The notes under the pieces: generated by a model | What the model was told of the DNA's origin: nothing | Database searches by the model: none | The model's input: the letters and a program-made list of their open reading frames with translations, nothing else | Position numbers and translations under genes: made by a program | Assembly (NCBI GenBank): GCA_026994965.1 | Contig: JALWPO010000154.1 | Location: 163-64,162, forward strand | DNA: 64,000 nt | DNA from: Mariprofundaceae bacterium | GTDB taxonomy: Bacteria; Pseudomonadota; Zetaproteobacteria; Mariprofundales; Mariprofundaceae | Direction of reading: 5' to 3' | Part shown: piece by piece, positions 1 to 16,777 of the stretch | Layout: each line of letters begins with the position of its first letter | How positions within the stretch are numbered: position 1 is the stretch's first letter

Positions 1-38
1 GCCTCTACACCATAATGAACAACCATATCAGGACTCAT
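1..38 (-). CDS. possible 5' end of fliQ, truncated by the left window edge (12 codons visible)
   Basis: Reverse complement of 1-38 reads ATG AGT CCT GAT ATG GTT GTT CAT TAT GGT GTA GAG GC, giving MSPDMVVHYGVEA. This resembles FliQ N-termini (E. coli FliQ starts MTPESVMMMGTEA, from memory). There is no clear Shine-Dalgarno and the stretch is too short to be certain. Confidence 0.25.
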   Translation of the reverse strand, partial: MSPDMVVHYGVE

Positions 39-653
39 ATTAAAGATATGAGCAATATGTGTACCAAGTTTAAAAGTTTATTTTATATGATAAATAACAC
101 CGCAAACAGTGTTTCGCAGATACTTGCTTTGTGATTTATATCACACCTCAAAATTATCATTTGTATTACTATGCGCGCCTTGGGGGCAATCATGCTTAAA
201 CATAATTCAAAGAACCGATACCGCCAAGCGGGGTTTGGTTGGAAGGTTTATATGGGTATGTTTGTCATTTGCCTTATCATTGCCTTTCTTATGGCATAAT
301 TCATCTAAGCCTTTACCTTGAGATGTAAAACTTCTAATTACCCACCATCAAGTTACTTTTGATACAATCAACCTTGTAAAAAGTTCATCTCGCAACCCGA
401 ATTCAATATCACACTATTTCTTATGCATCGTAAATAAATCTTTACTTCAACTATTCATTTTATACTAATATAACTTTGAAATGCCAAATACAAACACGTA
501 ACTTGTGATTATCCATAAGGCTATATATAAAGTCATACAGCATCTCATACTGAACAATCCTATTTTAATTTATATATTGGTACATAACTTGCTTTTATTT
601 TTTTCATATATCACACAATGATATATAAACGGCATCAAATAGAGGTTGAGATA

Positions 654-1976
654 ATGGATAATAATCAAACAAACCAAGAAGTTTTAACACTTTTCAAAGA
701 GCTTTCTTCAGGTAATTTTTGCCATCGTGCCAATGGCGATGATGATATCATCAAACAAGCCAATGCCTTTGCCGCTAATATGGAAGCCCGTATGTTGGAA
801 CAGTTAGATGATATGGTGGGCATGACTATGGATGCCTTTGAAACCACCATGACTATGGGGCATTTGGAACAGGATATTGGAGTATTAGATGATAGAGCTA
901 TGGCCATGGCAAGTGCAAGCGAGCAAATGAGCGCCAATGTATCCCATGTCGCAGAGCGGATTGAACAAGTTAATAGCAGTATCATTAATGCCAATCAGCA
1001 AAGCACTGATGCGACAGATGCTGTTGCCCATGCTGTGGATGCTATGAGTAATATTAATCACCAGGTTGAGCAAGCTGGTGAACGCGTAGAGGCACTCACA
1101 CAAGCTTCACACGAAATTGATAGCATACTTGCTGTGATAAAAAAAATATCAGACCAAACCAATCTGCTCGCTCTTAATGCAACGATTGAAGCAGCTAGGG
1201 CAGGTGAAGTGGGTAAAGGTTTTGCCGTGGTTGCCCATGAAGTCAAAGAATTATCCCAACAGACTAAACAAGCTACAGAAAATATTGTAGAAAAGATTCA
1301 TCGTATTCAACAAGATGTGTCAGGTATTGCTGAGTCCACAGATGGTATCACTCAGGCTGTGGAACAAGGCAAACAAAATATGGATGATTTAAATGGTCGT
1401 GTAAGTGAAATATCTACTGCTTTGGATAATATTACTACTGAAGTGGATCAAATTACCGAAGCCACCAATGACCAATCTGATGCTTCTCAAGAAGTGGCAT
1501 CTTCTGTGGCAGAAACCGCTACGATGGTCGCCAATGCAAGGCATGTGGTAGACCAAACATTAAAAGATACCGATGCTATGGAAAATAAACTGGTATCTGA
1601 AATCCAAGAATTTGCTGAAATGACACTTCAAGATGCCATCTTACGTTTGGCGAAATCAGACCATGTATTATGGAAAAAACGCCTTATCAATATGATTCTT
1701 GATCGTGGTGATATTGAACTCTCCACAGTTGCCAGCCATCATGATTGCAGGCTTGGTAAATGGTACGATTCGTTGGGTCAAGATGTGTATGGTCATAGCG
1801 AAAACTTCAAAAAATTAGCCATTCCTCATGAACAGGTTCATTCACTTGGTCGCCGTGCTGTTGAACGTTATAATAATGGCGATAAAGAAGGTGCAATTGC
1901 TGATGTAGAGGCTATTGGTCCATTATCTGAAGAAGTGGTAAATCTATTGGAAGCTTTAATCGCAGAATCTAGATAA
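654..1976 (+). CDS. soluble methyl-accepting chemotaxis protein with C-terminal CZB (chemoreceptor zinc-binding) domain
   Basis: MCP signalling hairpin is present ([43 protein letters not shown]). No TM segment. The C-terminus carries the CZB pattern H..W..(x)..C.LGKWY...PHEQVH. ATG at 654 is preferred over 618 because GAGG lies 8 nt upstream. Confidence 0.9.
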
Positions 1977-1977
1977 C

Positions 1978-3369
1978 TTAATCCTTCTGTTTCATTTGGC
2001 TACTACAGTGTAGTGCAGCTATTTTATAACATTCTGCAAGTGTTGGGTAATTAAAAACATTGCGAATCAAATCGTCAATCGTGCCATTGAGATTCATTAC
2101 CATTTGTCCAATATGAACCAACTCACTGGCAGATTCACCCACAATATGTACACCCAATAATTGGCGGCTATCTTTTTCAACCAAAAGCTTTAATAGTCCG
2201 TTAGAATCACCAATAATTTGACCACGTGCAGTTTCGCGATAATAACCAAATCCTGTGACATAAGCTTTACCTTGCTGCTCAAGCTCCACCGATGTTTGCC
2301 CCACCCATGCAACTTCTGGAATAGTATAAATAGCCATAGGAAGATGACTTGAAATAATCTTTTCATCTTCATTGCATGCGTGTAGCGCTGCAATACGCCC
2401 TTGCTCCATACCAGTCGCCGCCAAAGCTGGCGAACCAATCAAATCACCAACCGCATAAATATGGGGAATGTTGGTTTGAAAATATTCATTGGTCTGAATC
2501 CAGCCACGCGTATGGCAATCAATCCCCAACATATCTAGCCCTAAACCATCTGTGTTGGGAATACGCCCCAGTGCATAAAGCAAACAATCACTTTTAATTG
2601 CGCCACTTTCACTATCAAGAATCACCTTATTTCCTTGCCGAGTGATGGATTGAATCTGTGTATTCATCTGGAACTCAATACCCATATGCAGCATACTTTT
2701 TTCAAGATTTCTAGAAATATCATTGCATAAGAAGCTTAGAATTTTTGCATGCGAATCAACCATGATGACTTCAACGCCCAGTGACGCATAAATCGTCGCA
2801 AATTCACAGGCAATCACGCCACCACCCACAATAGTGAGCTGCTTAGGAAGCTCTTGCATATGTAAGATAGAGGTAGAATCCAACACGCGTTCTTTATCAA
2901 AAGGTATCTCGTTAGGGCGACGTGGTCGAGAGCCTGTAGCTAAAATAAATTTATCTGCACATAATCTTTGTTCATCACCACGCGGCGTTTTAATACACAA
3001 GGTGTGGGCATCTATAAAGCCCGCCTCACCAGGAATTAAGGCAACCCCATTACGTAACAGTTGACTTAAAAATACAGATTCTTGTTTATCAATAACGACA
3101 TCTTTTTGACGCACCGATTCGGATAAAAAATTATGCTGCCGTATTATATCTGGATGTACATTGCGCATACCATGGCTTGCTCCCATCGTGGCACTATAAG
3201 CTATTTCACGCAGTGCTTTGCTTGGAATGGTGCCTGTTTGTAATCCTGCACCACCAATACGGGCTTTACGCTCAATAAGACCCACGCGTTTACCTCGTTT
3301 GGCAGCTTGAATGGCAGCTCTATGCCCTGCGGGACCTGAACCAATCACCAGAATATCATAGTCAGGCAT
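1978..3369 (-). CDS. SthA-like FAD/NAD(P) pyridine nucleotide-disulfide oxidoreductase family flavoprotein lacking the redox-active disulfide
   Basis: GSGPAG FAD fold and a second Rossmann motif GGGVIACEFA. The segment GGAGLQTGTIPSKALRE parallels E. coli SthA GGGCTHWGTIPSKALRH but has no Cys. The C-terminus NYPTLAECYKIAAL is SthA-like. Start at 3369 has AAGGAG 5 nt upstream, and that Shine-Dalgarno overlaps the stop of the upstream gene. Confidence 0.85.
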   Translation of the reverse strand: MPDYDILVIGSGPAGHRAAIQAAKRGKRVGLIERKARIGGAGLQTGTIPSKALREIAYSATMGASHGMRNVHPDIIRQHNFLSESVRQKDVVIDKQESVFLSQLLRNGVALIPGEAGFIDAHTLCIKTPRGDEQRLCADKFILATGSRPRRPNEIPFDKERVLDSTSILHMQELPKQLTIVGGGVIACEFATIYASLGVEVIMVDSHAKILSFLCNDISRNLEKSMLHMGIEFQMNTQIQSITRQGNKVILDSESGAIKSDCLLYALGRIPNTDGLGLDMLGIDCHTRGWIQTNEYFQTNIPHIYAVGDLIGSPALAATGMEQGRIAALHACNEDEKIISSHLPMAIYTIPEVAWVGQTSVELEQQGKAYVTGFGYYRETARGQIIGDSNGLLKLLVEKDSRQLLGVHIVGESASELVHIGQMVMNLNGTIDDLIRNVFNYPTLAECYKIAALHCSSQMKQKD

Positions 3370-3379
3370 ATGCACTCCT

Positions 3380-3889
3380 TTATGTTGCATTCAAGAGCGC
3401 AAGGATGGCTTGAATAAGATCAGTGGGGGTAGGAGGGCAACCATGCACCACAGCATCCACAGGAATAATATCAGCAACACTACCCGCAATGGCATAATTA
3501 TCTTTGCCAAACACACCACAGTTAGCTGCGCAATCACCCATGGCAAGCACAAGTTTGGGTGAAGGCATGGCATCATAAGTCATCTCTAAGGCTGTTTTCA
3601 TATTGATACTCACTGGACCTGTCACCAACAGCATATCGGCAAAGCGAGGGCTGGCTGTAAAATGCACGCCAAAGCGCTCAATATCATAATAAGCATTGTT
3701 CGCAGCGTGAATTTCAAGTTCACAACCATTGCAAGAGCCAGCATCAACAAGGCGAATGGCAAGCGAGCCTTGAAAATGTTTGCGAATCGCATCCTTTAAT
3801 TCAGCACCCATGACTTCAAAAGCCTCACTGCTTTTTAATGGCTCAGTAATACTACCGATTTTACTGATTTGCTGTAAGATTCTTAACAT
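3380..3889 (-). CDS. NuoB/HyfI/HycG-like small subunit (one [4Fe-4S] cluster) of a group-4-hydrogenase-related complex
   Basis: All four cluster cysteines are present: GSCNGCELEI, GDCAANCGVFG, HGCPPTP. The 169-aa size is typical of HycG/EchC/NuoB. Confidence 0.9.
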   Translation of the reverse strand: MLRILQQISKIGSITEPLKSSEAFEVMGAELKDAIRKHFQGSLAIRLVDAGSCNGCELEIHAANNAYYDIERFGVHFTASPRFADMLLVTGPVSINMKTALEMTYDAMPSPKLVLAMGDCAANCGVFGKDNYAIAGSVADIIPVDAVVHGCPPTPTDLIQAILALLNAT

Positions 3890-3898
3890 ATCAGCACC

Positions 3899-5503
3899 TC
3901 ACACATCATGACCCGAATACGAGCAGTTAAACGATTTGTTCACCAATGGAAAATCAGGCACAGGCACTGTGCGCACAGCCAATTCTAAACCCAACCAATT
4001 GATGACTGATGGATCACGTACAAAATATCGATCGATTAAACCATCTGTACCAAAGCGTACCCAAGCAGCAATTTCTCCACGCCAAGATTCGATTGCCGCA
4101 AAGCCAGACACACCAGCTTCTGGAGCAACCCAATCTGTTTGGATACTTCCCTTTGGGAGGTTTTCAAGCATCTGAATAATCATGCGAGAGGAGCTCGCAA
4201 TTTCTTCAAATCGAACCCACACACGTGTAGAGACACCACCTTGTTCACCTTTTGGAATAGCAATATCGAGTTCATCATAAGGAGCGTAAGCCTCTTCAAT
4301 ACGTTCATCAGCTTCATGCCCTGAAGCCCGACCAACATACCCAAGCAGCCCAATATCTTTGGCATCATCCACACCCACAATACCCGCACCAATCACCCGT
4401 TGTTGAATCGATGCGGTATCCGCATAAATAGCTCTAAGATGCTCAACCTCTACAGCAATATCACGGGTTTGCTGTATAAGTTTCTGGCATGCTTCCTCGC
4501 TTACATCATGTGCAACACCGCCCAAGGTCAAAGTATTCATCAACAATCTGTGCCCAAAAACATCATGGTGTAAACGCGCCATATCTTCACGTAAGCGTGA
4601 GCATTGCACATGCATAAATGCAAATGCTGCATCATTGCAAATCGCCCCAATATCACCAATATGATTGGCAATACGTTCGCGCTCACACAAGATGCCACGA
4701 ATATAATCACAGCGTTTGGAAGTCATAACGTCCGCAGCATATTCGCAGGCTTGTGCAAATGCCCAGCTATGCCCCACGCTCGTATCCCCTGAAATGTGAC
4801 CTGCCAGCATCAATCCATCTGAAGCTGTCCGCCCTTGCATGCTTTTTTCAATACCTTTATGCACATAACCCAAGCGCTCTTCCATATTAAGGATTTTCTC
4901 ACCTACGGCTAAAAAACGAAAATGCCCAGGTTCAATAATCCCTGCATGCACAGGTCCTACTGGAATTTCATACACCGATTCACTCTCACAAGACACATAA
5001 TCATAATCCACCTGGGCTCGCCCCGCATCAGGCTGCATGGGTGAATGCCCATCAAAATCATCCAACAAAGGATGCGCATCTGCCTTCCAGTGTTCATGCT
5101 TAATCCACGGACGTGTATCAGGCATATCTTTTATGCTAATACCAAACATATCCTGCATATGCCGCTCCATACGGTACGCAGCGATATAGTGCTCACTAAT
5201 CGTAAGCACCTCGGGATTATCTTCTTGTAGCGGTGTACGCAGCAACACATGCCTATGCTCTGGATGAGCAAATGCCATATAGCTATACAATGTCTTCGCG
5301 TCATCATGCCTACCTGCCAAAGCTGCCCACACAGCCACAAAGCGCATCTCCAATCGTTTGGCTTCCTCAGCTGCATCCGCCCAATCCAAACGGCGAATTT
5401 CTAAACATGGCATATGGGCAGGATGATGATCTTCAAGGTATTGCGAATGAATACCATGATCACCCAAACGTTCGGCGAACCAAGTATTGCTTAATGCGGT
5501 CAT
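3899..5503 (-). CDS. NuoC-NuoD fusion / HycE-HyfG-like large subunit lacking most NiFe-ligand cysteines
   Basis: GPVHAGIIEPGHFRF, LGYVHKGIEK and RGILCERERIANHIGDIG are typical of group 4 large subunits. The N-terminal 150 aa are NuoC-like. The ligand motifs are degenerate (see findings). ATG at 5503 overlaps the upstream stop as ATGA. Confidence 0.9.
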   Translation of the reverse strand: MTALSNTWFAERLGDHGIHSQYLEDHHPAHMPCLEIRRLDWADAAEEAKRLEMRFVAVWAALAGRHDDAKTLYSYMAFAHPEHRHVLLRTPLQEDNPEVLTISEHYIAAYRMERHMQDMFGISIKDMPDTRPWIKHEHWKADAHPLLDDFDGHSPMQPDAGRAQVDYDYVSCESESVYEIPVGPVHAGIIEPGHFRFLAVGEKILNMEERLGYVHKGIEKSMQGRTASDGLMLAGHISGDTSVGHSWAFAQACEYAADVMTSKRCDYIRGILCERERIANHIGDIGAICNDAAFAFMHVQCSRLREDMARLHHDVFGHRLLMNTLTLGGVAHDVSEEACQKLIQQTRDIAVEVEHLRAIYADTASIQQRVIGAGIVGVDDAKDIGLLGYVGRASGHEADERIEEAYAPYDELDIAIPKGEQGGVSTRVWVRFEEIASSSRMIIQMLENLPKGSIQTDWVAPEAGVSGFAAIESWRGEIAAWVRFGTDGLIDRYFVRDPSVINWLGLELAVRTVPVPDFPLVNKSFNCSYSGHDV

Positions 5504-6963
5504 GCCCCGCCCCCAACAATCAATGCAGCCGCTTGATGATACCACTGGGATAGAAACATAGGGATGGATAAACCCAAAATCAGCGCCAAACCAAAATGAA
5601 TATATACTGGCATCATATTCACATGCACATGCTTGGCGTGTTCTGCTGTATCACCATATACCATGGGTTGCACAAATCGAAACAAGCCACCCATAGCAAT
5701 CAATAGACCCAATAATAAGGGCACAGCAAGCCAAGGATAGGATTCCAGTGTGGCGGTAAAAAGTAAAAACTCACTCATAAATACGCCAAAGGGTGGAAAG
5801 CCTGCAATCGCAGCTGTGCCAATCAATAAACCCCAGCCAATCCCTGGATGATGAGAAATCAAACCGCGAATCTCTGCCATTTTTTGTGTGCCCATCACTT
5901 GTGCTGCATGCCCAACGGTAAAAAATATGCCTGATTTTACCAATGAATGCACCGTCATGTGCAGCAATGCTGCAAAGGCGGCAAGCGGTGTTCCGATGCC
6001 AAATGCAAAGGTCATCAAGGCCATATGTTCAATGGAGGAAAAGGAAAACATACGTTTAATATCGCGCTGTTTGTGCAACGCCATCGCAGCAACAAGCAAG
6101 GATAGCAAACCAAAACCCATCATCATATGCCCTGCCATATCCGTATGGGTAGATCCATCGACCAACATTTTAAAACGCACCAAGGCATACAAAGCAAGAT
6201 TGAGCAGCAAACCTGATAATACTGCCGATACAGGTGTTGGACCTTCACCATGCGCATCAGGCAACCATGCATGCATGGGAACCAATCCCACTTTGGTGCC
6301 ATAACCCACCATTAGAAAACAAAAGGCAATGCCCATCACCGCTGGGTCTAACTGACCCGCATGTGCATAAAGCAATGACCATGTGAGTGCTTCATTACCA
6401 TGTCCAAGTATGGTTGAGGAAGTGAAAAATACCAAAATGGTTCCAAAGAGGGCAAGCGCAATCCCCATGCCGCATAAAATAAAATATTTCCATGCCGCAG
6501 CAATCGATGCGGGCGTGCGATACAACGAAACCAATAAGACCGTAGCAAGGGTTGCCAATTCCAATGACACCCAAAGCACACCAATATTATTGGTGGTAAA
6601 GCCGAGCAACATACCCAATTGAAAAAGTTGATACATGCTGTGATACAAGCGCAGGCGCTTTTCGTTAACGCGACCAATCTCAAGCTCATGCTGCATATAA
6701 GGCTTAGAAAAGATGGTCGTGGTCATACCTACAAAAGCCGTTAAAGAAACTAGGAAAACATTATAGGCATCCAAATAAAACCAACCATTGAATGTTGCGA
6801 GTGATGCCTGCCCTAACACTTGCAAAGCCAGCAAAATACTGAATGTAAAAGTCGTGACGGAAGTTAGGATATTGAGTTTTGCCGCAAGTTTTGGATTACG
6901 GAGTACGCCCAAGACCATGCCTCCGAGCAAGGGTGTTAATAATGTCGCAATAAAAAAGTTCAT
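5500..6963 (-). CDS. antiporter-like membrane subunit (HyfF/NuoN/Mrp-type, Proton_antipo_M family)
   Basis: 487 aa and polytopic. Motifs include WLPDAHGEGPTPVSAVLSG and SSIEHMALM..HSLVKSGIFF, characteristic of NuoL/M/N-HyfBDF proteins. Confidence 0.85.
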   Translation of the reverse strand: MNFFIATLLTPLLGGMVLGVLRNPKLAAKLNILTSVTTFTFSILLALQVLGQASLATFNGWFYLDAYNVFLVSLTAFVGMTTTIFSKPYMQHELEIGRVNEKRLRLYHSMYQLFQLGMLLGFTTNNIGVLWVSLELATLATVLLVSLYRTPASIAAAWKYFILCGMGIALALFGTILVFFTSSTILGHGNEALTWSLLYAHAGQLDPAVMGIAFCFLMVGYGTKVGLVPMHAWLPDAHGEGPTPVSAVLSGLLLNLALYALVRFKMLVDGSTHTDMAGHMMMGFGLLSLLVAAMALHKQRDIKRMFSFSSIEHMALMTFAFGIGTPLAAFAALLHMTVHSLVKSGIFFTVGHAAQVMGTQKMAEIRGLISHHPGIGWGLLIGTAAIAGFPPFGVFMSEFLLFTATLESYPWLAVPLLLGLLIAMGGLFRFVQPMVYGDTAEHAKHVHVNMMPVYIHFGLALILGLSIPMFLSQWYHQAAALIVGGGA

Positions 6964-7643
6964 TCGTCATCATCCTTTTGGATTAAGGATGATTGCATGG
7001 TATCAATTTCCATGGAATCAAATGTATTACGAATTTGAAAGAAAAATAACCCAAAAATCAGCGCCGCAATCAGCACATCAAAAGCAATCCCTATTTCAAC
7101 CACCAATGGCATTCCATTGGTCGCGCCAATGGCTGCGAAGAACAAGGAATTTTCCACAGCAAGAAAACCAATCACTTGAGTAATCGCTTTTTTACGGGTA
7201 ATCATCATCAACATACTGAGCAACACGCAAGCTGTGGCAATCGCCATAGAATTACGTGTCAATAATTCCGATGTAACCTCAATCGGCTGAATAATATGAA
7301 ATGAAAATAATGTAACAGCCACTGCAATCACCATGGTTATACCGCTGTTCATCAGTGGCTCAACTTCACGATGCACATGAAGCTTACGAATCACTCGCCA
7401 TAGCATCCAAGGTAGCAATAAGCCTTTAAGTAAAAACGTCATCATCGCAGAAATATAAAGCTCAGTTTCGCCTGTACTATAGGCCACCACAGCCGCTGTT
7501 GCTGCCAAGAGCAACCCCTGCCCTGCAAACCAACGTAAAACAGAAAGCATACGATGTTGTGCAAGAAGAGAAAATGAAATAAGTAAGGTTAAAGCTGCCA
7601 TGCCATCGATAATTTGTTGGGCAAACTGTTGAGAAAAAGTCAT
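6960..7643 (-). CDS. HyfE-like small polytopic membrane subunit (NuoK/J-related)
   Basis: About 227 aa and hydrophobic, with a GFLAVENSLFFAA motif as in HyfE. It sits between the HyfC-like and HyfF-like genes. The track start at 7697 is a TTG, so the ATG at 7643 is preferred. Confidence 0.7.
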   Translation of the reverse strand: MTFSQQFAQQIIDGMAALTLLISFSLLAQHRMLSVLRWFAGQGLLLAATAAVVAYSTGETELYISAMMTFLLKGLLLPWMLWRVIRKLHVHREVEPLMNSGITMVIAVAVTLFSFHIIQPIEVTSELLTRNSMAIATACVLLSMLMMITRKKAITQVIGFLAVENSLFFAAIGATNGMPLVVEIGIAFDVLIAALIFGLFFFQIRNTFDSMEIDTMQSSLIQKDDDE

Positions 7644-7791
7644 GCCCAGAGACCTCTGCACCGCAGTGATTTTTTGAGCGAACCAAGGCAAAAACAATCC
7701 TGAAACCGCAGTTTGCTGTTTGCAAATGAGGATTGAAGGGCTGTTTTTAACGCAGATGCAGCCAAAAAGGCGCGCGATGCTGAGATCTCGC

Positions 7792-8739
7792 TCATACAGC
7801 CACCTCCAGCATGTAGTGAATAATTAATCCCAAAAAAGCGAGCACAAAAGCAGCACCTAAATACTGTGGTACTTCAAACATTCGCAACTTCGCCATGGAT
7901 GTTTCCATCACTGCCAAAATCACAAACAACACCATTAACTTGGCAATCCATATCATCAAAGCCAATGCAATGGTCACTAAACTTGCATCACCACTGATGC
8001 CCCATGGAAAAAATAAATCGATGATGAGCGTAGCAAATAATAATAATTTTACCGCTGATGCCCATTCCATCAGGGCTAAATGTCGCCCTGAATACTCCAG
8101 CAACATGGCTTCATGAATCATGGTAAGTTCCAAGTGTGTGCTAGGGTTATCAATGGGAATACGCCCTGTTTCTACAATAGCAATCATCAACATCGCAACC
8201 AAAGCAAAAGCAATCGAAGGTTGAATCAATAATGGGGTATGCAGTGTATGCGCAATCATGGTTGTGAGATTGGTGCTGTGCGCGCCAATCGCCAATACAA
8301 ATATACTCATCAACATAGCAGGTTCAGCCAATGCGGAAAAAGTCATTTCCCGGCTTGCGCCCATGCCACCAAAGGCAGTGCCAATATCCATGCCTGCCAG
8401 TGATAAGAAAAAACGCCCCAAGGCTAACAGTGCAACCAAGGCAATCACATCTGCCGTCAAGGATAGAGGTGTATCCAGTAATAATGATGGGACTACGCTT
8501 GCCGCCATCACCGTTGCCGTAAATACTACATAAGGCGCAAACCGAAAAATCCATGATGCATGATCTGCCAGCACTACTTCTTTATTGAATAATTTTTGTA
8601 TATCACGCCATGGTTGCATGATGCCTGCGCCACGTCTGTTTTGCAGACGCGCTTTGACGGTGCTGACAAACCCTAGCACTAATGGTGCGAACATCACCAT
8701 CAGCACAGCTTGCAAAAGTTGGAAAAAAATAGAACTCAT
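7792..8739 (-). CDS. HyfC/HycD/NuoH-like membrane subunit
   Basis: The N-terminus LLQAVLMVMFAPLVLGFVSTVKARLQNRRGAGIMQPWRDIQKLFNKE is the HycD/HyfC signature. 315 aa, polytopic. Confidence 0.85.
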   Translation of the reverse strand: MSSIFFQLLQAVLMVMFAPLVLGFVSTVKARLQNRRGAGIMQPWRDIQKLFNKEVVLADHASWIFRFAPYVVFTATVMAASVVPSLLLDTPLSLTADVIALVALLALGRFFLSLAGMDIGTAFGGMGASREMTFSALAEPAMLMSIFVLAIGAHSTNLTTMIAHTLHTPLLIQPSIAFALVAMLMIAIVETGRIPIDNPSTHLELTMIHEAMLLEYSGRHLALMEWASAVKLLLFATLIIDLFFPWGISGDASLVTIALALMIWIAKLMVLFVILAVMETSMAKLRMFEVPQYLGAAFVLAFLGLIIHYMLEVAV

Positions 8740-10757
8740 GCGAATACCGCCAAAAGAAAGAGCACTGTTGCAAAGGTGTATGCCAAATAAGCATGAATAC
8801 CGCGTTGATGCTCATGGCGAATGATTTTGGCAAGCCAAAGCGTGGCATGACCAATCGGTTGATAGACCTGCTTCACCACCATATCACTGACATGTACAAT
8901 ATATTTTACACGCGTGGTGAGTAATGCATGCTTATGGCGCTCTGCATGTTCGTGTTCTTCTGGTTGATATAAATCCACAAAAATACGTCGCAAAGGTTGA
9001 GAAAAACTAGCAGCATTGTATTGCATACGCGCGTGGGTATGTGGATTGCCACAACTCCACATTTTACTGCGTCGAATATGATTGCCTTTGGGGTGTAGCC
9101 ACCAAAATGCTAAGCCACCAAGCAATAACATACCTATCAGTGCTAAAGGCGCTGAATAAGAAGCGCGCTCTGCATCCATGGGCGTAAGCCAAACCCAACT
9201 ATGATTATGCAACGATGATAGCATGGATGTGTGCAACAATGCCTGCGGCACATGATCCAATAAAGGTATGAACAACGTGGGAAGAAGCCCAAGCAATAAA
9301 CAACATACTGCGGGTATCACCATGCCGAATTTCATCCACATATCGACTTCTTTAGCATCTGCTACAGCCTCGCTACGTGCATGACCCAAGAAAACCACAC
9401 CAAAGACTTTGACAAAACAAGTTGCCGCTAATGCCCCTGCCAATGCCAACATCGCAGCAGAGAAAGGAACCATGGCAGTAAGCAGTGCGCCTCCCAATTG
9501 CGGAGCCATCAATGCAGTTTGAAAGGTTAACCACTCAGAGACAAATCCATTGAACGGTGGCAATGCCGAAATGGAAATACACGCTACAAGGAACAAGCCC
9601 GATGTCCACGGCATACGATGAATCAAACCACCCATTTTTTCCATATTGCGTGTGCCTGTTTTATGCAGCACTGCACCAGCACCCATAAATAATAGCCCTT
9701 TAAACAGCGCATGATTGATGGTGTGATACAAGGCTGCAATCAAACCCAATGCTGCCAGTGTTGGGTGATTAAAATGTGCGAGCAACATACCCAAGCCCAA
9801 GCCAATCAAAATAATACCAATATTCTCAATGGAGTGATAAGCCAGCAAACGTTTTAAATCATGTTGTTGTAATGCCATGAGTACGCCAGATACCGCAGAG
9901 CTGGAACCAGCCGCCAATACCAATGCGCCCCACCACCATTGAAAATCACCACTACCCATCAAATCCCAAGTGATACGAATAAAACCAAAGATTGCGACCT
10001 TCAACATAATACCACTCATCAATGCCGATACATTCGATGGTGCAACAGGATGCGCATCAGGCAACCAGCCATGCATGGGAACCACGCCAGCCTTGGTACC
10101 AAAACCAAAACCTGCCAATAAAAATGCCACCGATGCCCATAATGGTGAGATAGAAGCTTCACGCATGGCAGAAAATTCAAACGAGCCCGATACAGCATAG
10201 AGCGTAGCAAAACTTCCCATAATCAATAGCCCTGCCATATGTGCCATCAGTAAATAAATAAAGCCTGCTTTGCGATTTTCAGGGTATTGATGTTCGTGTG
10301 TCACAAGAAAATAAGAGGATACGCTCATCAATTCCCAATATAACATAAAGGTAAACGCATCATCGGATAACACCACGCCCATCATGCCCAACACAAATAA
10401 GGGCAAGAAAATCGCTAGCGGTGTGAGTTTCTTTTCATGGCTTAAATAACCATAGCTATAAATAGAAACAGGCAATGTTAATGAACCAATCACCAATAAA
10501 AAGAATGAACCCAAAGCATCCAAACGCAGGTGCATGGGTAACCATGGTAATCCTAAAGGTAGAGTGATACTACCCCCACCTGAAATAAGCCCTGTAAAAC
10601 CAGCCACGACTGCAAGCAAACCACTGATGGCCAACAAAGCACTCAAAGCAATACGTTGAATCGTGGGATTACTTTGTAAACAAGGGGCTGCAACCGCAGC
10701 GATGACCATAGATAAGCACGCCCCAAGCGCCATATGTAATGAAAGCACAGCCATCAT
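8736..10757 (-). CDS. HyfB/HycC/NuoL-like antiporter-like membrane subunit
   Basis: 673 aa. Motifs include WLPDAHPVAPSNVSALMSGIMLK and AYHSIENIGIILIGLG..NHALFKGLLFMGAG. It overlaps the downstream gene by 4 nt. Confidence 0.85.
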   Translation of the reverse strand: MMAVLSLHMALGACLSMVIAAVAAPCLQSNPTIQRIALSALLAISGLLAVVAGFTGLISGGGSITLPLGLPWLPMHLRLDALGSFFLLVIGSLTLPVSIYSYGYLSHEKKLTPLAIFLPLFVLGMMGVVLSDDAFTFMLYWELMSVSSYFLVTHEHQYPENRKAGFIYLLMAHMAGLLIMGSFATLYAVSGSFEFSAMREASISPLWASVAFLLAGFGFGTKAGVVPMHGWLPDAHPVAPSNVSALMSGIMLKVAIFGFIRITWDLMGSGDFQWWWGALVLAAGSSSAVSGVLMALQQHDLKRLLAYHSIENIGIILIGLGLGMLLAHFNHPTLAALGLIAALYHTINHALFKGLLFMGAGAVLHKTGTRNMEKMGGLIHRMPWTSGLFLVACISISALPPFNGFVSEWLTFQTALMAPQLGGALLTAMVPFSAAMLALAGALAATCFVKVFGVVFLGHARSEAVADAKEVDMWMKFGMVIPAVCCLLLGLLPTLFIPLLDHVPQALLHTSMLSSLHNHSWVWLTPMDAERASYSAPLALIGMLLLGGLAFWWLHPKGNHIRRSKMWSCGNPHTHARMQYNAASFSQPLRRIFVDLYQPEEHEHAERHKHALLTTRVKYIVHVSDMVVKQVYQPIGHATLWLAKIIRHEHQRGIHAYLAYTFATVLFLLAVFA

Positions 10758-11308
10758 CGAGAGCGAACCATTAACAATTCACATGGCTTATCGGATCGAT
10801 TGTGCCAGTTATGTTGCTTGCGTGCATCATAATAAAGCGATTGCATTTCATGCAGTGGATATTCGCGCCCATCATATGCCAACACCACATCACCACGCCG
10901 CACCCACACAAAAGCATGTGCGCTTTTAATACCATATTGATTTTCTTCAAAGCTTCCGCCTGCATCCAGTTGTACCAACATGGGCTCAAAACCAATGGGT
11001 TGATGCAATGCGGTTAAAGGAATGAAGCGACCACCTTGACTCAGTGGAACCGTAGGACGGTCATTTAAATCAAAGATTTCAATATCGCTTTGCTCGCCTG
11101 TTTCAAGAAAAAAAGCAGCTACGGCAATACCAAGCCCATCCGCAAGCTTTTCCAAGGTTGCAACCGAAGGCGAAGCTCTGCCCGATTCCAGTTGCGATAA
11201 AGCAGCCGCACTGATACCAGCTTGTTCCGCCAACATCCGTTGTGAAAGCGATTGTTGTTCACGAAGCGTTTTAATCGTAAGGGCGATGTTTTTCATAGGG
11301 CGGTGCAT
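10754..11308 (-). CDS. XRE-family HTH plus cupin domain transcriptional regulator
   Basis: The N-terminal HTH_3 reads LREQQSLSQRMLAEQAGISAAALSQLESGRASPSVATLEKLADGLG. The C-terminal roughly 100 aa look like a cupin beta-barrel (PuuR-like architecture). The stop overlaps the start of the HyfB-like gene by 4 nt. The true start may be the ATG at 11296. Confidence 0.85.
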   Translation of the reverse strand: MHRPMKNIALTIKTLREQQSLSQRMLAEQAGISAAALSQLESGRASPSVATLEKLADGLGIAVAAFFLETGEQSDIEIFDLNDRPTVPLSQGGRFIPLTALHQPIGFEPMLVQLDAGGSFEENQYGIKSAHAFVWVRRGDVVLAYDGREYPLHEMQSLYYDARKQHNWHNRSDKPCELLMVRSR

Positions 11309-11446
11309 TATTCATAATAATGGTCATATGTAAATATTATTTAACATTCTGTGGACTTTAGCACTACGGCGTTTTTTACATGAGGACTAAAAGAAGCAAT
11401 TTTAACATAGATATAGCCAAAAAGGTGAGTGGTGCAGAAGTCTCTA

Positions 11447-12184
11447 CTATTTAAAACTTTGCAATAAAGATGCTGTAAGCAAATGCCAACCATCCACCAA
11501 CACGAATAAAATAATTTTTAGGGGTAACGAAATCATCACTGGTGGTAACATCATCATGCCCATACTCATCAATACTGAAGCTACTACTAAATCCAATACC
11601 ACAAAGGGAATATAAATAAGAAAACCAATTTCAAAAGCCGTTCTCAGCTCACTAATAATAAATGATGGAATCAGCACATGCATGGGTGTTGCACTAGCAG
11701 TGGCTGGTTTTTCCATATGTGCAGCATCCAAAAATAATAATAAATCATCATTTCTTGTCTGCCGCAGCATAAAAGCTTGAATCGGTGCTTTAGCTTTTTC
11801 AAATGCCTCTGCCTGCGATATGTTTTCAGCCAAATAAGGCGTGATTGCCTCAGCATCGATTTTATCCCATACAGGCATCATGATAAACACACTCATGAAC
11901 AATGCTAACCCAATCAAAACTTGGGTTGGTGGGCTTTGCTGTGTACCTAGAGCCTGACGTAAAAAGGCAAATACAATCACAATCCGTGTAAATGATGTCA
12001 TCATCACAAGTGCCGATGGTGCAAGTGTGAGTATGGTTAACAATGCTAAAATTTTTAGTCCTGTAAACCAATCATCTGGATTGTTTCCATCCCCTAAATG
12101 AATGGATAAGGTGGGAATATCTGCCGACCAAGCTGTATGTGGCAATATCAACACCAAGAAGATTAAAAGTAGCTTAACTTTCAT
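11447..12184 (-). CDS. fliP: flagellar export gate protein FliP
   Basis: Signal peptide MKVKLLLIFLVLILPHTAWSA, then the FliP core LTILTLAPSALVMMTSFTRIVIVFAFLRQALGTQQSPPTQVLIGLALFMSVFIMMPV. Confidence 0.95.
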   Translation of the reverse strand: MKVKLLLIFLVLILPHTAWSADIPTLSIHLGDGNNPDDWFTGLKILALLTILTLAPSALVMMTSFTRIVIVFAFLRQALGTQQSPPTQVLIGLALFMSVFIMMPVWDKIDAEAITPYLAENISQAEAFEKAKAPIQAFMLRQTRNDDLLLFLDAAHMEKPATASATPMHVLIPSFIISELRTAFEIGFLIYIPFVVLDLVVASVLMSMGMMMLPPVMISLPLKIILFVLVDGWHLLTASLLQSFK

Positions 12185-12476
12185 GATGTAACTCATTAGC
12201 TTGTTCATCGTTTTCTGAACGCTCAATCGTATCAATCACCTGCAACCCATCAGTAGATAATCCTAAAAGATAGCAACGTTTACCATGCCGAACTTCCACT
12301 ACGCTATGACGCGTATCCAAGCTGACTTTTTGCAATACTTTGATATTGGATGTCGAAGGAGAACCCATACGATATTGCAATCGTTTCATACCCCAAACCA
12401 ACAAGGCAAACAATGCCAATACCACTGCTAATGCAGCAATCGATTGAAGCATCATCATGGCTAAACCTTGTTCCAT
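12174..12476 (-). CDS. fliO: flagellar biosynthesis protein FliO
   Basis: 100 aa with a single TM (IAALAVVLALFALLVWGMKRL) followed by VLQKVSLDTRHSVVEVRHGKRCYLLGLS. It lies between fliN and fliP. Confidence 0.8.
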   Translation of the reverse strand: MEQGLAMMMLQSIAALAVVLALFALLVWGMKRLQYRMGSPSTSNIKVLQKVSLDTRHSVVEVRHGKRCYLLGLSTDGLQVIDTIERSENDEQANELHHES

Positions 12477-12480
12477 TGAC

Positions 12481-12798
12481 TTAACCTAAGCTTCGGATGC
12501 GCTCACCCGATGGCACAATATCAACAATTCGAATACCTAACTTTCCATCGGATGATACCACTTCACCACGTGCAAACACCTGCCCATTCGCCAAAATATC
12601 CACTTCTGCATTGGCTTCTTTTTTTAAATCCACAACTGTGCCACGGTGCAAACGTGCTACATGGTGCAGGGGCAGCTCAACACGCCCCAATTCAACACTT
12701 ACCGACAGCGGCACATGCATAATGGCTTCCAAATTGGGTCGTGGAACATCCTGATTAATATGATTATCTGTTGTCACTTCTTCTGGGCTATCACTCAT
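12481..12798 (-). CDS. fliN: flagellar motor switch protein FliN
   Basis: SpoA domain VPLSVSVELGRVELPLHHVARLHRGTVVDLKKEANAEVDILANGQVFARGEVVSSDGKLGIRIVDIV. Confidence 0.9.
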   Translation of the reverse strand: MSDSPEEVTTDNHINQDVPRPNLEAIMHVPLSVSVELGRVELPLHHVARLHRGTVVDLKKEANAEVDILANGQVFARGEVVSSDGKLGIRIVDIVPSGERIRSLG

Positions 12799-13820
12799 GA
12801 TATACCTCCCTGTATGGCATCGGTTAGCTCTGCTGCCAACATACCCTCTTGACTACCTGCTTGCGCCTGAAACATGGGCATAGCATCAATCCATAATGTT
12901 GCAGGATCTGTATCGCCGACCTTAAATGGTAAATAATCACCTTGTGATAACGCTAGAAATTCACCAATCTCCATCGAACATTGCCCCAACTCCAAACGCA
13001 TCGTAATCGGAACCTCACTTAATGCATGTTCCAATTGTGCCTGCCACATCTCATCCACAGCCACTGGCTCATCACTCATGGTAGAGCGCAAACTATCCAA
13101 CATCGGCTCCAAAAATGTGCGTGGATAATGCAAAGCAAATGTGCCTTTGACATCTTCATCCAGTTGAATTTCAAAATACATAGAAAAACAGGCATCTTGA
13201 GCACCTGCCACAGCAAGAAACTGTGAGTCTGTCTCCAATTTGAACAACACAAAATCCAAAACCGTGACGGGTTTCCATGTATTTTCAAGATGCATTTCAA
13301 GGCTTTTTGCAATCCGCTCAGCCAAACGATTTTCCACCGGTGATAACGCCTGTATAGATTCATCATATACCTCACCACTACCACCCAACATGGCATCCAC
13401 ATGTGCTACAATTAGCGGCAAATCAAAAGCCAACATCATGCGCCCATAGCCTTCCACTGAATAAGCAAAAAATACGCGGTGCTCTTCTGCACTAATCACA
13501 TCACGGTATGTGTTTTCTGTCATACTTTGAAAACTCACCCCAATATCACGCTGAAAAGTATCCTCCCACTGCTCTTTAAGCGCTTCTGCCATACGCTCCT
13601 GAAGATTTACAAACAATGGATAGCGCCCAGGCCCTTCACTATCATCCTGATCAAAAGTAAAAGCTTCCACTGCTTCAGGCTCTTGGATAGGCGGCAATGA
13701 TGAAAATAATGCGTCAATCGTTTCATCTGAACCAACATTTGCCATCAAAGCCTCAATTTCTTCAGGCTCCAATACAGGTTTTTTATCTTCTGCAACTGCT
13801 GCTTCAACTGTTTCTGTCAT
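12795..13820 (-). CDS. fliM: flagellar motor switch protein FliM
   Basis: 341 aa, acidic N-terminus, central FliM domain and C-terminal SpoA-like part (PITMRLELGQCSMEIGEFLALSQGDYLPF). Position fliL-fliM-fliN. Confidence 0.9.
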   Translation of the reverse strand: MTETVEAAVAEDKKPVLEPEEIEALMANVGSDETIDALFSSLPPIQEPEAVEAFTFDQDDSEGPGRYPLFVNLQERMAEALKEQWEDTFQRDIGVSFQSMTENTYRDVISAEEHRVFFAYSVEGYGRMMLAFDLPLIVAHVDAMLGGSGEVYDESIQALSPVENRLAERIAKSLEMHLENTWKPVTVLDFVLFKLETDSQFLAVAGAQDACFSMYFEIQLDEDVKGTFALHYPRTFLEPMLDSLRSTMSDEPVAVDEMWQAQLEHALSEVPITMRLELGQCSMEIGEFLALSQGDYLPFKVGDTDPATLWIDAMPMFQAQAGSQEGMLAAELTDAIQGGIS

Positions 13821-14338
13821 TGCGACACAAAGTCCGTAAAATATAATTTTTTCACAGGCTTACCTGGAAATATTTTATTCAACCTAAATATCAATTCTTC
13901 TTTCAATGCATACTTACCCCTAGGCGTACGTATATCTTCAAAAGTTTTGCTCGATAAAATAGTTAAGATTAAATCATTGATTTTGGCTTTGCCTGCATCT
14001 GTATCAAGCTTTGCAAGCGCCTCTTCTGAGCGCAACTCAAGCTTAATTTTTGCGCGTAAGAAACGACTCACATCAGCATCTGCCAAGTTAATCGTGATAT
14101 TATCCACATCCATCAATACAGGTGGTTTATCACTTTCTTCATCAACCTCTGGTATTTTTGTTTCTGCTGTTTCTGTAGGTGCTTTATCCGTAGCTACACC
14201 CGATTGTTCCATCTGCATCATTTTCCATGCAACAAAACCACCGACTGCCAAAACAAGAACCAATAAAACCATATTGATGATAGGTAATATACCACCTCCA
14301 CCCGATGATTTAGCTTCTTTTTCTGCGTCATCTGCCAT
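13817..14338 (-). CDS. fliL: flagellar basal body-associated protein FliL
   Basis: Single N-terminal TM, then ITINLADADVSRFLRAKIKLELRS...INDLILTILSSKTFEDI...KKLYFTDFVSQ, a typical FliL. Confidence 0.8.
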   Translation of the reverse strand: MADDAEKEAKSSGGGGILPIINMVLLVLVLAVGGFVAWKMMQMEQSGVATDKAPTETAETKIPEVDEESDKPPVLMDVDNITINLADADVSRFLRAKIKLELRSEEALAKLDTDAGKAKINDLILTILSSKTFEDIRTPRGKYALKEELIFRLNKIFPGKPVKKLYFTDFVSQ

Positions 14339-14369
14339 ATGTATGCTCCTTCATATCAAACATCCTTAA

Positions 14370-15071
14370 CTATTTATAAACAACAATTTCCACGCGACGG
14401 TTCCGACTTCGTCCAAACGGTGTAGCATCAGTGGATACAGGTCTTGATGGTCCATACCCAGCCAATGACAAACGTGCAGGATTTACACCTTCTTCTTCCA
14501 AGATACGCAAGACTGATGCCGAACGTGCCAAAGTAAGACTCCATGGATCAGTATACTTACTCCCTGCGCGCGGTTTAAATTGTGTGTCTGAATGCCCATT
14601 CACACTGATTTTACCCGGTGACATCGCCAACATGCGCGCTAAACGCCGCAATGCCTTTATGTTTTCTTCTTTAAGCTCCGCTGAACCTTCATCAAACATC
14701 ACTGCATCCTTGATACGAAGATAAAGCTTATCTTTTACAATAATTGCATTGACTTTATGTTCCAATACACTATTTTTAAGTACCACATGACTATTCTGGC
14801 GCATCGCCAACATCAACTCGCGCGGTGTCACTTTAAGCTGCAACTGTGATGGTGGGATAATATTAAGCTCTGTACGTTCACCTGCATTCATCACCGATAC
14901 AGCTTTTTGAAAATATGTGGAAATATCCTGTAACCCTGTTTTATCCAATGTGGACATAGAAACCAACAAGATAAAGAATGTAAGCATAAGGCTCACTAAA
15001 TCGGCAAAAGTAGTCATCCATGCTTCAGGGTCTGGTTTATATACGACCGGCCATTTCTTCTTTCTTGCCAT
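14370..15071 (-). CDS. motB: flagellar stator protein MotB/PomB (canonical Asp in the TM plug)
   Basis: WMTTFADLVSLMLTFFILLVS resembles Vibrio PomB WMGTFADLMSLLMCFFVLLLS. The C-terminal OmpA-like domain reads NGHSD...WSLTLARSASV...NRRVEIVVY. Confidence 0.85.
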   Translation of the reverse strand: MARKKKWPVVYKPDPEAWMTTFADLVSLMLTFFILLVSMSTLDKTGLQDISTYFQKAVSVMNAGERTELNIIPPSQLQLKVTPRELMLAMRQNSHVVLKNSVLEHKVNAIIVKDKLYLRIKDAVMFDEGSAELKEENIKALRRLARMLAMSPGKISVNGHSDTQFKPRAGSKYTDPWSLTLARSASVLRILEEEGVNPARLSLAGYGPSRPVSTDATPFGRSRNRRVEIVVYK

Positions 15072-15072
15072 A

Positions 15073-15846
15073 TCAGAATCCCATCTTTGGTTCACTCACC
15101 GCTGCCCGATGCGGTGGCGATAAACTCATTTTTTTCGATTGTTCTGAGTGTTCCGTCACTGGGCGGAATTTCAGTATAATTTCTACACGGCGACTCAACT
15201 CTGGATGATTGGGAATCGGATGTTTATCCCCCATACCTGCTACCACCATACGACCATTAGCAACACCTCGCTCCGATAATGCATGAAATACAGACATCGC
15301 TCGCGCAGCAGAAAGCTCCCAATTGGAGATATAAATAGAACCTCGAACAGGGGTATCATCGGTATGACCTTCAATGCGAACCTCAATCACTTCAGGACGA
15401 GTAAAAATAACAGCCAACTTATCCATCAACTTCATACTGCTTGGCAATAAATCAACATGACCAGGTGCAAATGAAATATGCTCTGGAAAGCGTACACGCA
15501 CAGAGTCTTGATCCAAAGCAATCGCATACATGCCATGAATACCTAAATCCTTAGCCACATCCGTCAATGCTTTGGCGGTTCGTTTGGGTGCTTTTGAACC
15601 ATCCACAATATCACGTGAAGGCATAGCAGGACCTTTGCCTTGACTTAAATTTGCCCCTTTGGGTAAAGGACTAAATGTGCCTGCTAATGAACCCAATGCA
15701 GCCAAACGTTTTTCTTCTACAATCACTGCCATGGAGGTAAGTAAAATAAAAAATGCCAACATCTGCATCATCAACTCAAGAAATAAGGCTGCGCCAATAT
15801 CTTTAGGTCGATCAATGGGAGCTGGTTTTTTCTCTCGTTTAGCCAT
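15073..15846 (-). CDS. second MotB-like stator protein (OmpA/MotB domain) with Glu at the conserved Asp position
   Basis: The TM segment LFLELMMQMLAFFILLTSM aligns to E. coli MotB YADFMTAMMAFFLVMW. The C-terminal domain reads GHTDDTP...SNWELSAARAMSV...SRRVEIILK. Confidence 0.8.
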   Translation of the reverse strand: MAKREKKPAPIDRPKDIGAALFLELMMQMLAFFILLTSMAVIVEEKRLAALGSLAGTFSPLPKGANLSQGKGPAMPSRDIVDGSKAPKRTAKALTDVAKDLGIHGMYAIALDQDSVRVRFPEHISFAPGHVDLLPSSMKLMDKLAVIFTRPEVIEVRIEGHTDDTPVRGSIYISNWELSAARAMSVFHALSERGVANGRMVVAGMGDKHPIPNHPELSRRVEIILKFRPVTEHSEQSKKMSLSPPHRAAVSEPKMGF

Positions 15847-15883
15847 AATTTATCAGCTGATTACCAAGTAGTCTTGACACATA

Positions 15884-16642
15884 TCAATCAAACGCAGATT
15901 GGCGTTCTTTGGGCGGCAAGTATCCAAGTAATTTTTGTTCCATCACCCTAGGGTTCTCTCCCGCAACCAAAGATTGAATCCCTGTTAGGATAATTTCTAA
16001 AATCAACATCTCTTCTGTACTGCGTGTTTTAAGTTTACCTGCCATAGGTAAAAATAAGATATTGGCCAATAAAGCACCATAAAATGTAGTGAGCAATGCC
16101 ACAGACATGGATGGTCCAATCGATGATGGGTCGGACATATTCGATAACATCAATACCAGACCCACCAATGTACCAATCATGCCCATAGAAGGTGCATACG
16201 TACCACAAGCTGTCAGCATATCCGAGCCCTCTGCATGACGGCCTGAAACCTTATCCATTTCCATATATAATATATCTTCAATCTCAGATGGTTCTTGACC
16301 ATCAATGGCCATTTGAAGTCCTTTTGCCATAAAAGGATTTTCAATATCTCCTACTTTACTCTCTAAGGCTAAAATACCATCTTTACGCACGATTTGAGCC
16401 AATTCCACAAGCTCAGCAATGACATCTTTACCTGCATCTAATTTATACATAAATGTCTTTAAAATTACACCAATTAAGCCAATCACTTTAGAAAGTGGAT
16501 AACCCACCAAAACCACACCTACTGTACCTCCAATCACAATCATAATAGAAGGTACATCCACAAAACCCATCAGCGCATCACCAATCGCAAATGCGACCAG
16601 ACCAAATGCGATTAGAATCCCTAAGACTGTTGCAATATCCAC
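15884..16642 (-). CDS. motA: flagellar stator protein MotA, PomA-like
   Basis: 252 aa. APSMGMIGTLVGLVLMLSNMSDPSSIGPSMSVALLTTFYGALLANILFLP closely resembles Vibrio PomA. GTG start with AGGAGG 5 nt upstream. Confidence 0.9.
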   Translation of the reverse strand: MDIATVLGILIAFGLVAFAIGDALMGFVDVPSIMIVIGGTVGVVLVGYPLSKVIGLIGVILKTFMYKLDAGKDVIAELVELAQIVRKDGILALESKVGDIENPFMAKGLQMAIDGQEPSEIEDILYMEMDKVSGRHAEGSDMLTACGTYAPSMGMIGTLVGLVLMLSNMSDPSSIGPSMSVALLTTFYGALLANILFLPMAGKLKTRSTEEMLILEIILTGIQSLVAGENPRVMEQKLLGYLPPKERQSAFD

Positions 16643-16747: not shown

Positions 16748-16777
16748 TCTTATTAAGAAAAATACTTTACACAAAGC

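Follow-up and report, generated by a model that had tools for sequence, protein, structure and literature searches.

In a 64-kb stretch of a Mariprofundaceae genome (Zetaproteobacteria; contig JALWPO010000154.1, positions 163 to 64,162; the whole stretch is hereafter the window), the flagellar export genes fliP and fliQ are separated by ~11.4 kb of non-flagellar sequence, which we consider, with a probability of roughly 0.75, to be a mosaic of passenger DNA, inserted into the spacer that separates two flagellar transcription units. One unit of the mosaic would be a cassette that brings a sigma-70-type promoter of its own, with a palindromic operator, and contains an XRE-cupin regulator gene and six genes for an energy-converting hydrogenase-related (Ehr) complex, here joined by a gene for an SthA-type flavoprotein. 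The other would be a gene for a soluble methyl-accepting chemotaxis protein (MCP) with a CZB domain, carrying its own sigma-54-type promoter and having orthologs located elsewhere in relatives. Both units would have landed between the fliP stop codon and the sigma-54-type promoter of fliQ, which fliQ would have retained, and the fliP-side block would end at a stop codon that is a homology breakpoint in other lineages too. Because fliQ keeps its predicted promoter and the fliP block ends at this shared breakpoint, the insertion probably does not disturb flagellar expression and is tolerated by selection. The relatives found by sequence agree with an assignment of the window to the Mariprofundaceae. 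Throughout, L-numbers label the related loci that were compared and P-numbers the database FliQ proteins.

Gene content of the interval

The interval and its two borders comprise the following features.

1-38, minus strand: first 12-13 codons of fliQ, which runs off the edge; translation MSPDMVVHYGVE
39-617, no strand: spacer of AT-rich sequence that separates fliQ from the divergently oriented MCP gene, with no homolog in the related loci compared
51-66, minus strand: putative sigma-54-type -24/-12 element before fliQ, TGGTACACATATTGCT, from a consensus scan, ending 12-13 nt before the fliQ ATG
100-119, minus strand: hairpin with a T-rich tail that resembles a terminator, placed upstream of the predicted fliQ promoter, a weak candidate from the consensus scan only
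578-593, plus strand: putative sigma-54-type -24/-12 element before the MCP gene, TGGTACATAACTTGCT, from a consensus scan
654-1976, plus strand: soluble MCP-CZB chemoreceptor of 440 aa, with an alternative ATG at 618 (Pfam MCPsignal 1.6e-40, CZB 3.3e-16)
1978-3369, minus strand: flavoprotein like SthA-type soluble NAD(P)+ transhydrogenases, last gene of the operon (NCBIfam NF003585, 538 bits against a cut-off of 465)
3380-3889, minus strand: NuoB/HycG-like small subunit (Pfam Oxidored_q6 7.1e-30)
3899-5503, minus strand: NuoC-NuoD/HycE-like fused large subunit (Pfam Complex1_30kDa, Complex1_49kDa)
5500-6963, minus strand: HyfF-like antiporter-type membrane subunit (NCBIfam hydrogenase 4 subunit F, 699.7 bits against a cut-off of 543)
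6960-7643, minus strand: HyfE-like membrane subunit (NCBIfam NF008556 1.1e-25, below the cut-off; a 227-aa gene is called in L001)
7644-7791, minus strand: intra-operon spacer of 148 nt, missing in relatives and holding one copy of a ~75-nt repeat
7792-8739, minus strand: NuoH/HyfC-like membrane subunit (Pfam NADHdh 7e-40)
8736-10757, minus strand: HyfB-like antiporter-type membrane subunit (NCBIfam hydrogenase 4 subunit B, 782.9 bits against a cut-off of 667)
10754-11308, minus strand: XRE-family helix-turn-helix plus cupin regulator, first gene of the module, likely start at 11296 (Pfam HTH_3, Cupin_2)
11309-11346, minus strand: predicted promoter/operator of the module (TTTACA, 16 nt, AATAAT, with an overlapping AATAAT...ATTATT palindrome), at the edge of homology with other Ehr loci
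11347-11446, minus strand: junction sequence after fliP, absent from relatives' fliP-fliQ spacers and from other Ehr loci, holding a copy of the repeat
11447-12184, minus strand: fliP, last gene of the motA-motB-fliL-fliM-fliN-fliO-fliP block (Pfam FliP 4.8e-82)

By its sequence, the fragment at the left edge (1-38) is fliQ. All 13 of its residues are identical to those of P0252 and P0244, both of which hold the exact string MSPDMVVHYGVEA followed by a full FliQ; 11 of the 13 are identical in the FliQ of L057, the N-termini in the nearest relatives reading MNPDMVVHFGVEAL or MNPDMVVVQGVEAL, and 20 more of the 120 best FliQ hits match the fragment at 10-12 of 13 positions. It is oriented as fliP and has the N-terminus and the position of a FliQ (Pfam Bac_export_3). 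The in-frame codons that the P0252 gene call places upstream of the FliQ start differ from those of the window, and the ~30 nt before the fliQ ATG align with the nearest relatives, the remaining spacer not. The window stops after fliQ codon 13, with the rest of fliQ and any fliR beyond its edge, and no further FliQ and no FliR, FlhB, FlhA, FlhF, FlhG or FliA is encoded within the 64 kb. The first-pass annotation, made from the letters alone, had taken this fragment for fliQ, had placed ~11.4 kb between it and fliP and had singled out a 580-nt AT-rich non-coding region; the exact match to two database proteins, together with the conserved ~30 nt upstream, confirms the first point and with it the second, and the low GC content of the spacer described below agrees with the third.

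The spacer of ~580 nt between fliQ and the MCP gene lies in AT-rich DNA (GC 0.25-0.40 over bases 1-700). Compared by blastn with related loci, bases 39-617 gave only chance-level hits, and positions 1-12300 matched no Rfam family. A 35-codon open reading frame (ORF) at 192-299 was dropped as a gene, having one spurious hit among 1.8 billion representatives.

The scan for sigma-54-type elements used the consensus TGGCAC-N5-TTGCW, with GG and GC 10 nt apart. The elements at 51-66 and 578-593 each match 10 of the 11 specified positions and are conserved at orthologous positions in relatives. The one before fliQ (TGGTAY-N5-TTGCT) stands at the same distance from the gene in L057, L058, L059 and L141 (5520-5534, 10139-10153, 11018-11032 and 9751-9765, respectively), where other spacer sequence is not conserved. 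From this pattern fliQ probably starts its own transcription unit at a predicted promoter and, given the conservation of the element, the fliP-fliQ spacer would be an operon boundary.

The fliP-regulator and the Sth-MCP junctions are independently supported. Assemblies from ENA, NCBI, JGI and Logan supplied thirteen contigs that run collinear with window positions 609-17934 at 99.2-100% identity and cross both junctions; since these contigs are independent, we regard both junctions as real. The 245-aa form of fliP is recorded in eight further contigs.

The fliP-fliQ junction in related bacteria

In the four lineages with the closest FliP, L057 (88%), L141 (87%) and L058/L059 (85%), fliQ begins 191-313 nt after fliP; in L057, L058 and L141 it is followed by fliR, flhB, flhA, flhF, flhG and fliA, and L059 ends inside flhB. 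Homology between the window and these relatives ends at the fliP stop codon and restarts ~30 nt before the fliQ ATG. Given the adjacency of fliP and fliQ in all four closest lineages, an insertion is the most economical reading of the window, and it is from these lineages that we infer the direction of the change, namely a gain here rather than a loss elsewhere.

The same junction is a recurrent breakpoint, since four other Zetaproteobacteria lineages carry unrelated genes after fliP. L060 matches L058 at 91.5% identity across 6 kb until 2 nt beyond the fliP stop codon, after which it carries PAS-MCP, HDOD and EAL genes. In L061, fliP is followed by a gene for a sensor protein, a GAF-PAS protein by reading of the translation, and in L142-144 by genes for a DEAD helicase, YaeQ and a two-component pair, L142 having no fliQ within 10 kb. 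In Mariprofundus aestuarium, fliP precedes a gene for a TPR protein and then PilZ and HD-domain response regulator genes, which in L057 follow the fliQ-to-fliA block. In 49 of 62 loci from diverse bacteria the gene immediately after fliP is fliQ, and in the other 13 it is not, so that separation of the two genes is not exceptional; this background set and L061 come from a metagenome scan with FliP and consist mostly of distant bacteria. A terminator search after fliP in the relatives found none.

Several further observations concern these relatives. The spacer after fliP in L060 (6023-6810) holds several GC-rich palindromic repeats resembling repetitive extragenic palindromes, such as GTCATGCCCGCGAAGGCGGGTATCC and GGATCCCCGCATTCGCGAGGATGACGG, and the spacer of the window holds none. 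In M. aestuarium (L145, CP018799.1, 10934-20753), the TPR protein, PilZ and response regulator genes are followed by an MCP gene and then by an inverted run of genes for an MgtE_N protein, a fliJ-position ORF, fliI, fliH and fliG, which indicates that rearrangement of its flagellar cluster took place at two or more operon boundaries. Breaks ahead of fliK and ahead of motA are also seen in L059 and L142.

A conserved Ehr cassette with changing neighbours

The regulator-Ehr operon is kept in 41 other Zetaproteobacteria loci, among them those of M. ferrooxydans PV-1 and M. erugo, with large subunits 62-80% identical. Its surroundings are not kept. None of the 41 loci encodes FliP, FliO, FliN, FliM, FliQ or an MCP in its flanks, which extend up to 10 kb and are in many cases much shorter, and apart from one 24%-identical hit the flanks hold no homolog of anything in the window. 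The gene just upstream of the cassette falls into at least 15 clusters in 19 loci and the gene just downstream into at least 22 clusters in 27 loci. In six loci (L017, L022, L025, L038, L043 and L044), including that of M. erugo, the cassette appears to lie between purH and purD, with both flanks visible in L025, L038 and L043 and a single one in L017, L022 and L044; by this position the operon there itself looks like an insertion into a pair of purine-biosynthesis genes. The two or three closest loci have the cassette between a gene for an Mrp/NUBPL ATPase and rnfABCDGE, and the SthA-type gene is present there too. In PV-1 (L023, NZ_DS022295.1), a TraG_N conjugation gene (1168-4092) and a phage-type integrase gene (13321-14394) flank the cassette, which suggests that it is carried there on an integrative element. 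The cassette, that is the regulator, the Ehr genes and sometimes SthA, is thus a conserved yet very mobile accessory unit of iron-oxidising Zetaproteobacteria.

One edge of the unit can be placed by conservation. In L010, L005, L006, L015, L020, L013 and L012, loci whose neighbouring genes differ, the 33-38 nt that precede the regulator are kept at 86-97% identity, which sets the module edge at ~11347. The conserved stretch includes a sigma-70-like match (10 of 12 positions), and its AATAAT...ATTATT palindrome, which overlaps the -35/-10 region, is probably an autoregulatory operator of the XRE-cupin protein. The regulator starts 138-150 nt after fliP, depending on which start is used (11308 or 11296), and precedes the Ehr genes in every related locus that extends that far upstream.

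Ehr complexes are defined by the loss of the Ni/Fe-coordinating cysteines of related hydrogenases and are believed to link redox chemistry in the cytoplasm with ion translocation by their antiporter-like subunits (PMC6349859). In the alignment of the large subunit of the window with Escherichia coli HycE (7z0s_E), RvCGiC aligns with iSGdT and dpCysC with nCsySG, so none of the four NiFe-binding positions is aligned with a cysteine; the two CxxC motifs were not found, and the protein scores under every NCBIfam cut-off. In the small subunit, four cysteines, read in the translation rather than from an alignment, stand at what we take to be the cluster-ligand positions. Genes for maturation, formate dehydrogenase and HycB/HycF-type ferredoxins are missing among the larger ORFs of the window scanned with Pfam. 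Since no NiFe-binding cysteine is aligned and these genes are missing, the operon does not encode a hydrogenase, and identity with a group 4 [NiFe] hydrogenase (Hyf/FHL-2) was ruled out.

The flavoprotein passes the SthA equivalog cut-off (Si-specific NAD(P)+ transhydrogenase), and an SthA-type gene also follows the small subunit at a gap of ~10 nt in L005 and L010. Judged by family membership only, the Ehr operon would couple a redox reaction to ion translocation, with NAD(P)H, by way of the SthA-like protein, as a candidate partner, and a reasonable hypothesis is an NAD(P)H-linked reaction that may run in reverse in an iron oxidiser. A search of one literature library for Ehr or Hyf-like complexes in Zetaproteobacteria found no paper.

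The operon differs from its relatives by the 148-nt spacer: in L005, L010, L012 and L013 the genes called on either side of this position overlap or abut. As a separate observation, a ~75-nt repeat, 76-78% identical between copies and with the core CTTTTTGGCTRYATCTRYGTTAAAA, occurs at 11400-11444 and 7745-7789 on the minus strand, two copies only in the window, one beginning within a few nucleotides of the fliP stop codon and the other directly behind the ehrC stop codon, in the 148-nt gap. Folding gave the copy after fliP no greater stability than shuffled sequence, and the 148-nt spacer only modest stability (z = -2.3). L035 carries, directly after its Ehr operon (12159-16900), a second, divergent Hyf-like set that is 26-40% identical to EhrB, EhrC, EhrE and EhrF.

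The chemoreceptor gene

The 440-aa form of the MCP is the one called in another assembly and the one that aligns over its full length with orthologs. Its CZB domain is C-terminal, with the conserved H-x3-C and PH...H residues, and Pfam found no sensor domain in it. Orthologs at 58-77% identity are common in the family. The closest one on a long contig (77%; L146, 8448-11317) comes after a co-oriented gene for a cytochrome c peroxidase, with many rhodanese, TusA and DsrE genes in the region, and has its own GG-N10-GC element, TGGTCTAACTCTTGCT, ~35 nt before the ATG; the unrelated MCP of L060 also has a sigma-54-type element upstream. Going by the peroxidase gene beside the L146 ortholog, the receptor may sense oxidants or redox state.

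The MCP and SthA-like genes converge, with stop codons one base apart (1974-1980) and no terminator found between them, and transcription from either side would run antisense into the opposite gene.

Origin of the interval

Several observations weigh against a passenger insertion. Bases 1-608 are covered by no independent contig in the comparison that supports the other junctions, and therefore the link from the MCP gene to fliQ rests on the assembly of the window itself. Five Zetaproteobacteria lineages, this one included, lack fliQ directly after fliP, which leaves the closest relatives as the sole guide to the ancestral state. No mobility gene, tRNA gene or flanking repeat marks the insert: Pfam detected no integrase, transposase or conjugation gene among its nine main ORFs, positions 1-12300 contain no boundary direct or inverted repeats and no tRNA targets, and the window contains no tRNA gene. 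The regulator-Ehr-Sth genes are oriented as fliP and the 138-nt gap between them holds no terminator-like site, so that read-through could co-express them with the motor and switch genes. The predicted MCP promoter is of the same class as the flagellar promoters, and the sigma-54-type pattern is not enriched in the window (3 found, 1.75 expected).

The orientation of the Ehr genes, the open 138-nt gap and the shared promoter class of the MCP, fliQ and flgB, together with motA and two MotB-like genes only 3-5 kb away, could be read as functional coupling, in which the Ehr-SthA complex and the chemoreceptor were recruited for motility and are co-expressed with it, supplying or sensing the ion-motive force for the stator. 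We regard this as improbable. No related Ehr locus among the 41 has a flagellar or MCP neighbour, the cassette retains its own predicted promoter and operator in every context, the MCP ortholog has its sigma-54-type element in an unrelated neighbourhood, and other lineages carry unrelated genes at the same junction; the suggestion of the first-pass annotation that the arrangement reflects motility energetics thus finds no support. We also hold it unlikely that the fliP-fliQ spacer is a true capture site, which would repeatedly gain sensory or energy genes downstream of the motor-switch operon and where read-through would here co-express an ion-translocating redox complex with the stator. Genes found at the junction, as examples of what such a site would hold, are those for MCPs and for cyclic di-GMP and GAF/PAS sensors and, here, Ehr-SthA.

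The two flagellar genes might instead have been apart already in the ancestor of the lineage, the Ehr genes lying between independently placed blocks. L060, L061, L142-144 and M. aestuarium, none of which has fliQ after fliP, would fit this, as would the 13 diverse bacterial loci of the same kind, but the four lineages with the most similar FliP have adjacent fliQ, fliQ in the window is the next flagellar gene, has the orientation of fliP and keeps the promoter element of adjacent junctions, and the closest Ehr relatives have the cassette beside rnf genes. We therefore give an older organisation little credence. The first-pass annotation had named an ancestral placement of fliQR elsewhere as one finding that would overturn its reading; such a placement exists in some relatives and is not found in the closest ones.

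Horizontal acquisition on a since-decayed mobile element, such as an integrative conjugative element, rather than shuffling within the genome, is a less likely alternative. It would be in line with the TraG_N gene and phage-type integrase on either side of the PV-1 cassette, with neighbours that differ in nearly every genome and with the ~75-nt repeat found both just after the fliP stop codon and inside the operon. The missing integrase, transposase, tRNA gene and terminal repeats, in or beside the insert, speak against it, as does composition: the insert has a GC content of 0.442 and the other parts of the window 0.429 and 0.435, the distance in relative synonymous codon usage from the rest is smaller for the insert (0.142) than for the flagellar block (0.210), tetranucleotide correlations are 0.91-0.97, and GC, GC at third codon positions, codon usage and tetranucleotide profile of the insert all lie within the range of the remaining window. 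A foreign composition was accordingly rejected, and with so host-like a profile any donor would have to be a close relative.

An assembly artefact, by which bases 1-608 with the start of fliQ were wrongly joined to the MCP gene, is very improbable. In its favour, the two contigs that extend furthest left stop at window positions 609 and 688, on the border of the AT-rich spacer. Exact-protein look-ups for a leftward extension, made with Sth and with both forms of the MCP (452 and 440 aa), gave only contigs of 1.5-3.4 kb, ending at or after 609. Against it, AT-rich spacers commonly break short-read assemblies, the orientation of the fragment and its conserved fliQ promoter element fit a simple insertion, and the remaining contig is confirmed at 99-100% identity. 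A passenger insertion at the fliP-fliQ spacer remains the reading that we prefer.

The flagellar cluster of the window

Flagellar genes from flgB (28009-28410, minus strand; Pfam) to fliP run contiguously on the minus strand from 28410 to 11447 by Pfam, in the order flgB, flgC, fliE, fliF, fliG, fliH, fliI, a fliJ-position ORF (167 aa, no Pfam hit), a gene for an MgtE_N (ylxF-like) protein, fliK, flgD and flgE, followed by motA, two MotB/OmpA-like genes, fliL, fliM, fliN, fliO and fliP. The names fliM, fliN and fliO were taken from Pfam hits already computed for identical proteins of metagenome contigs, and the fla/che-like order from flgB to fliP recognised in the first-pass annotation stands on both kinds of hit. 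Beyond flgB lie two sigma-54 activator genes and a histidine kinase gene, and twenty further large ORFs, located between 34.5 and 57.7 kb of the window, belong by Pfam to housekeeping and polysaccharide-type families only.

Of the two MotB-like genes after motA (14370-15846), the one at 15073-15846 has an OmpA domain only and the one at 14370-15095 has MotB_plug plus OmpA; the pair is kept in every related locus examined. Other sigma-54-type elements were seen before fliK (20869-20884, minus strand), ending ~11 nt before the ATG, and before flgB (28508-28523), ~100 nt upstream of the gene. A transcript from the fliQ or the fliK element would be nearly leaderless.

Implications

The case calls for caution, since gene neighbourhood is here no evidence of function: the adjacency of Ehr and flagellar genes would be one accident among many and an instance of ordinary genome plasticity at an operon boundary. 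The flagellar cluster of the class seems to be made of sigma-54-type units, with the unit boundaries serving as rearrangement breakpoints. The Ehr genes with an SthA-type flavoprotein beside rnf in the closest relatives offer a testable idea for the electron partner of Ehr; iron oxidisers, as lithoautotrophs, need reverse electron flow. The soluble CZB chemoreceptor, widespread in the family, may sense oxidants.

Comparison with known systems

The operon shares with described Ehr complexes (PMC6349859) large and small subunits homologous to those of group 4 NiFe hydrogenases and complex I, antiporter-like membrane subunits and a large subunit missing the Ni/Fe-coordinating residues, but a partner such as formate dehydrogenase or a NuoE/NuoF-like protein is missing; the operon of this subclade ends with an SthA-type flavoprotein gene, and rnf adjoins it in the closest relatives. 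Among solved structures, the best match of the large subunit is the E. coli formate hydrogenlyase/hydrogenase-4 type (Hyc/Hyf; PDB 7z0s; 2.4e-52), and the HyfB and HyfF of the window pass the equivalog cut-offs, whereas the large subunit lacks the aligned NiFe-binding cysteines of that enzyme.

The chemoreceptor resembles the TlpD-type receptors of Helicobacter pylori in having an MCP signalling domain and a C-terminal CZB domain, with no periplasmic sensor by Pfam. TlpD-type receptors are soluble CZB chemoreceptors.

In its variable content between two core genes and its sharp homology breaks at gene ends, the junction is like flexible genomic islets at integration hotspots. It differs from them in having no integrase, tRNA gene or repeats and in its native composition, and also because the downstream core block is itself displaced in some Zetaproteobacteria lineages.

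The gene order from flgB to fliP is that of the Bacillus/spirochaete type of flagellar operon (fla/che; flgB operon), and the close relatives carry this order on through fliQ-fliR-flhB-flhA-flhF-flhG-fliA. The Borrelia flgB operon has motA and motB between flgE and fliL, as in the window. Unlike these operons, the cluster of the window is apparently divided into sigma-54-type units, flgB, fliK and fliQ each being preceded by a candidate promoter; it also has two sigma-54 activator genes upstream of flgB and is split between fliP and fliQ by 11.4 kb of non-flagellar genes.

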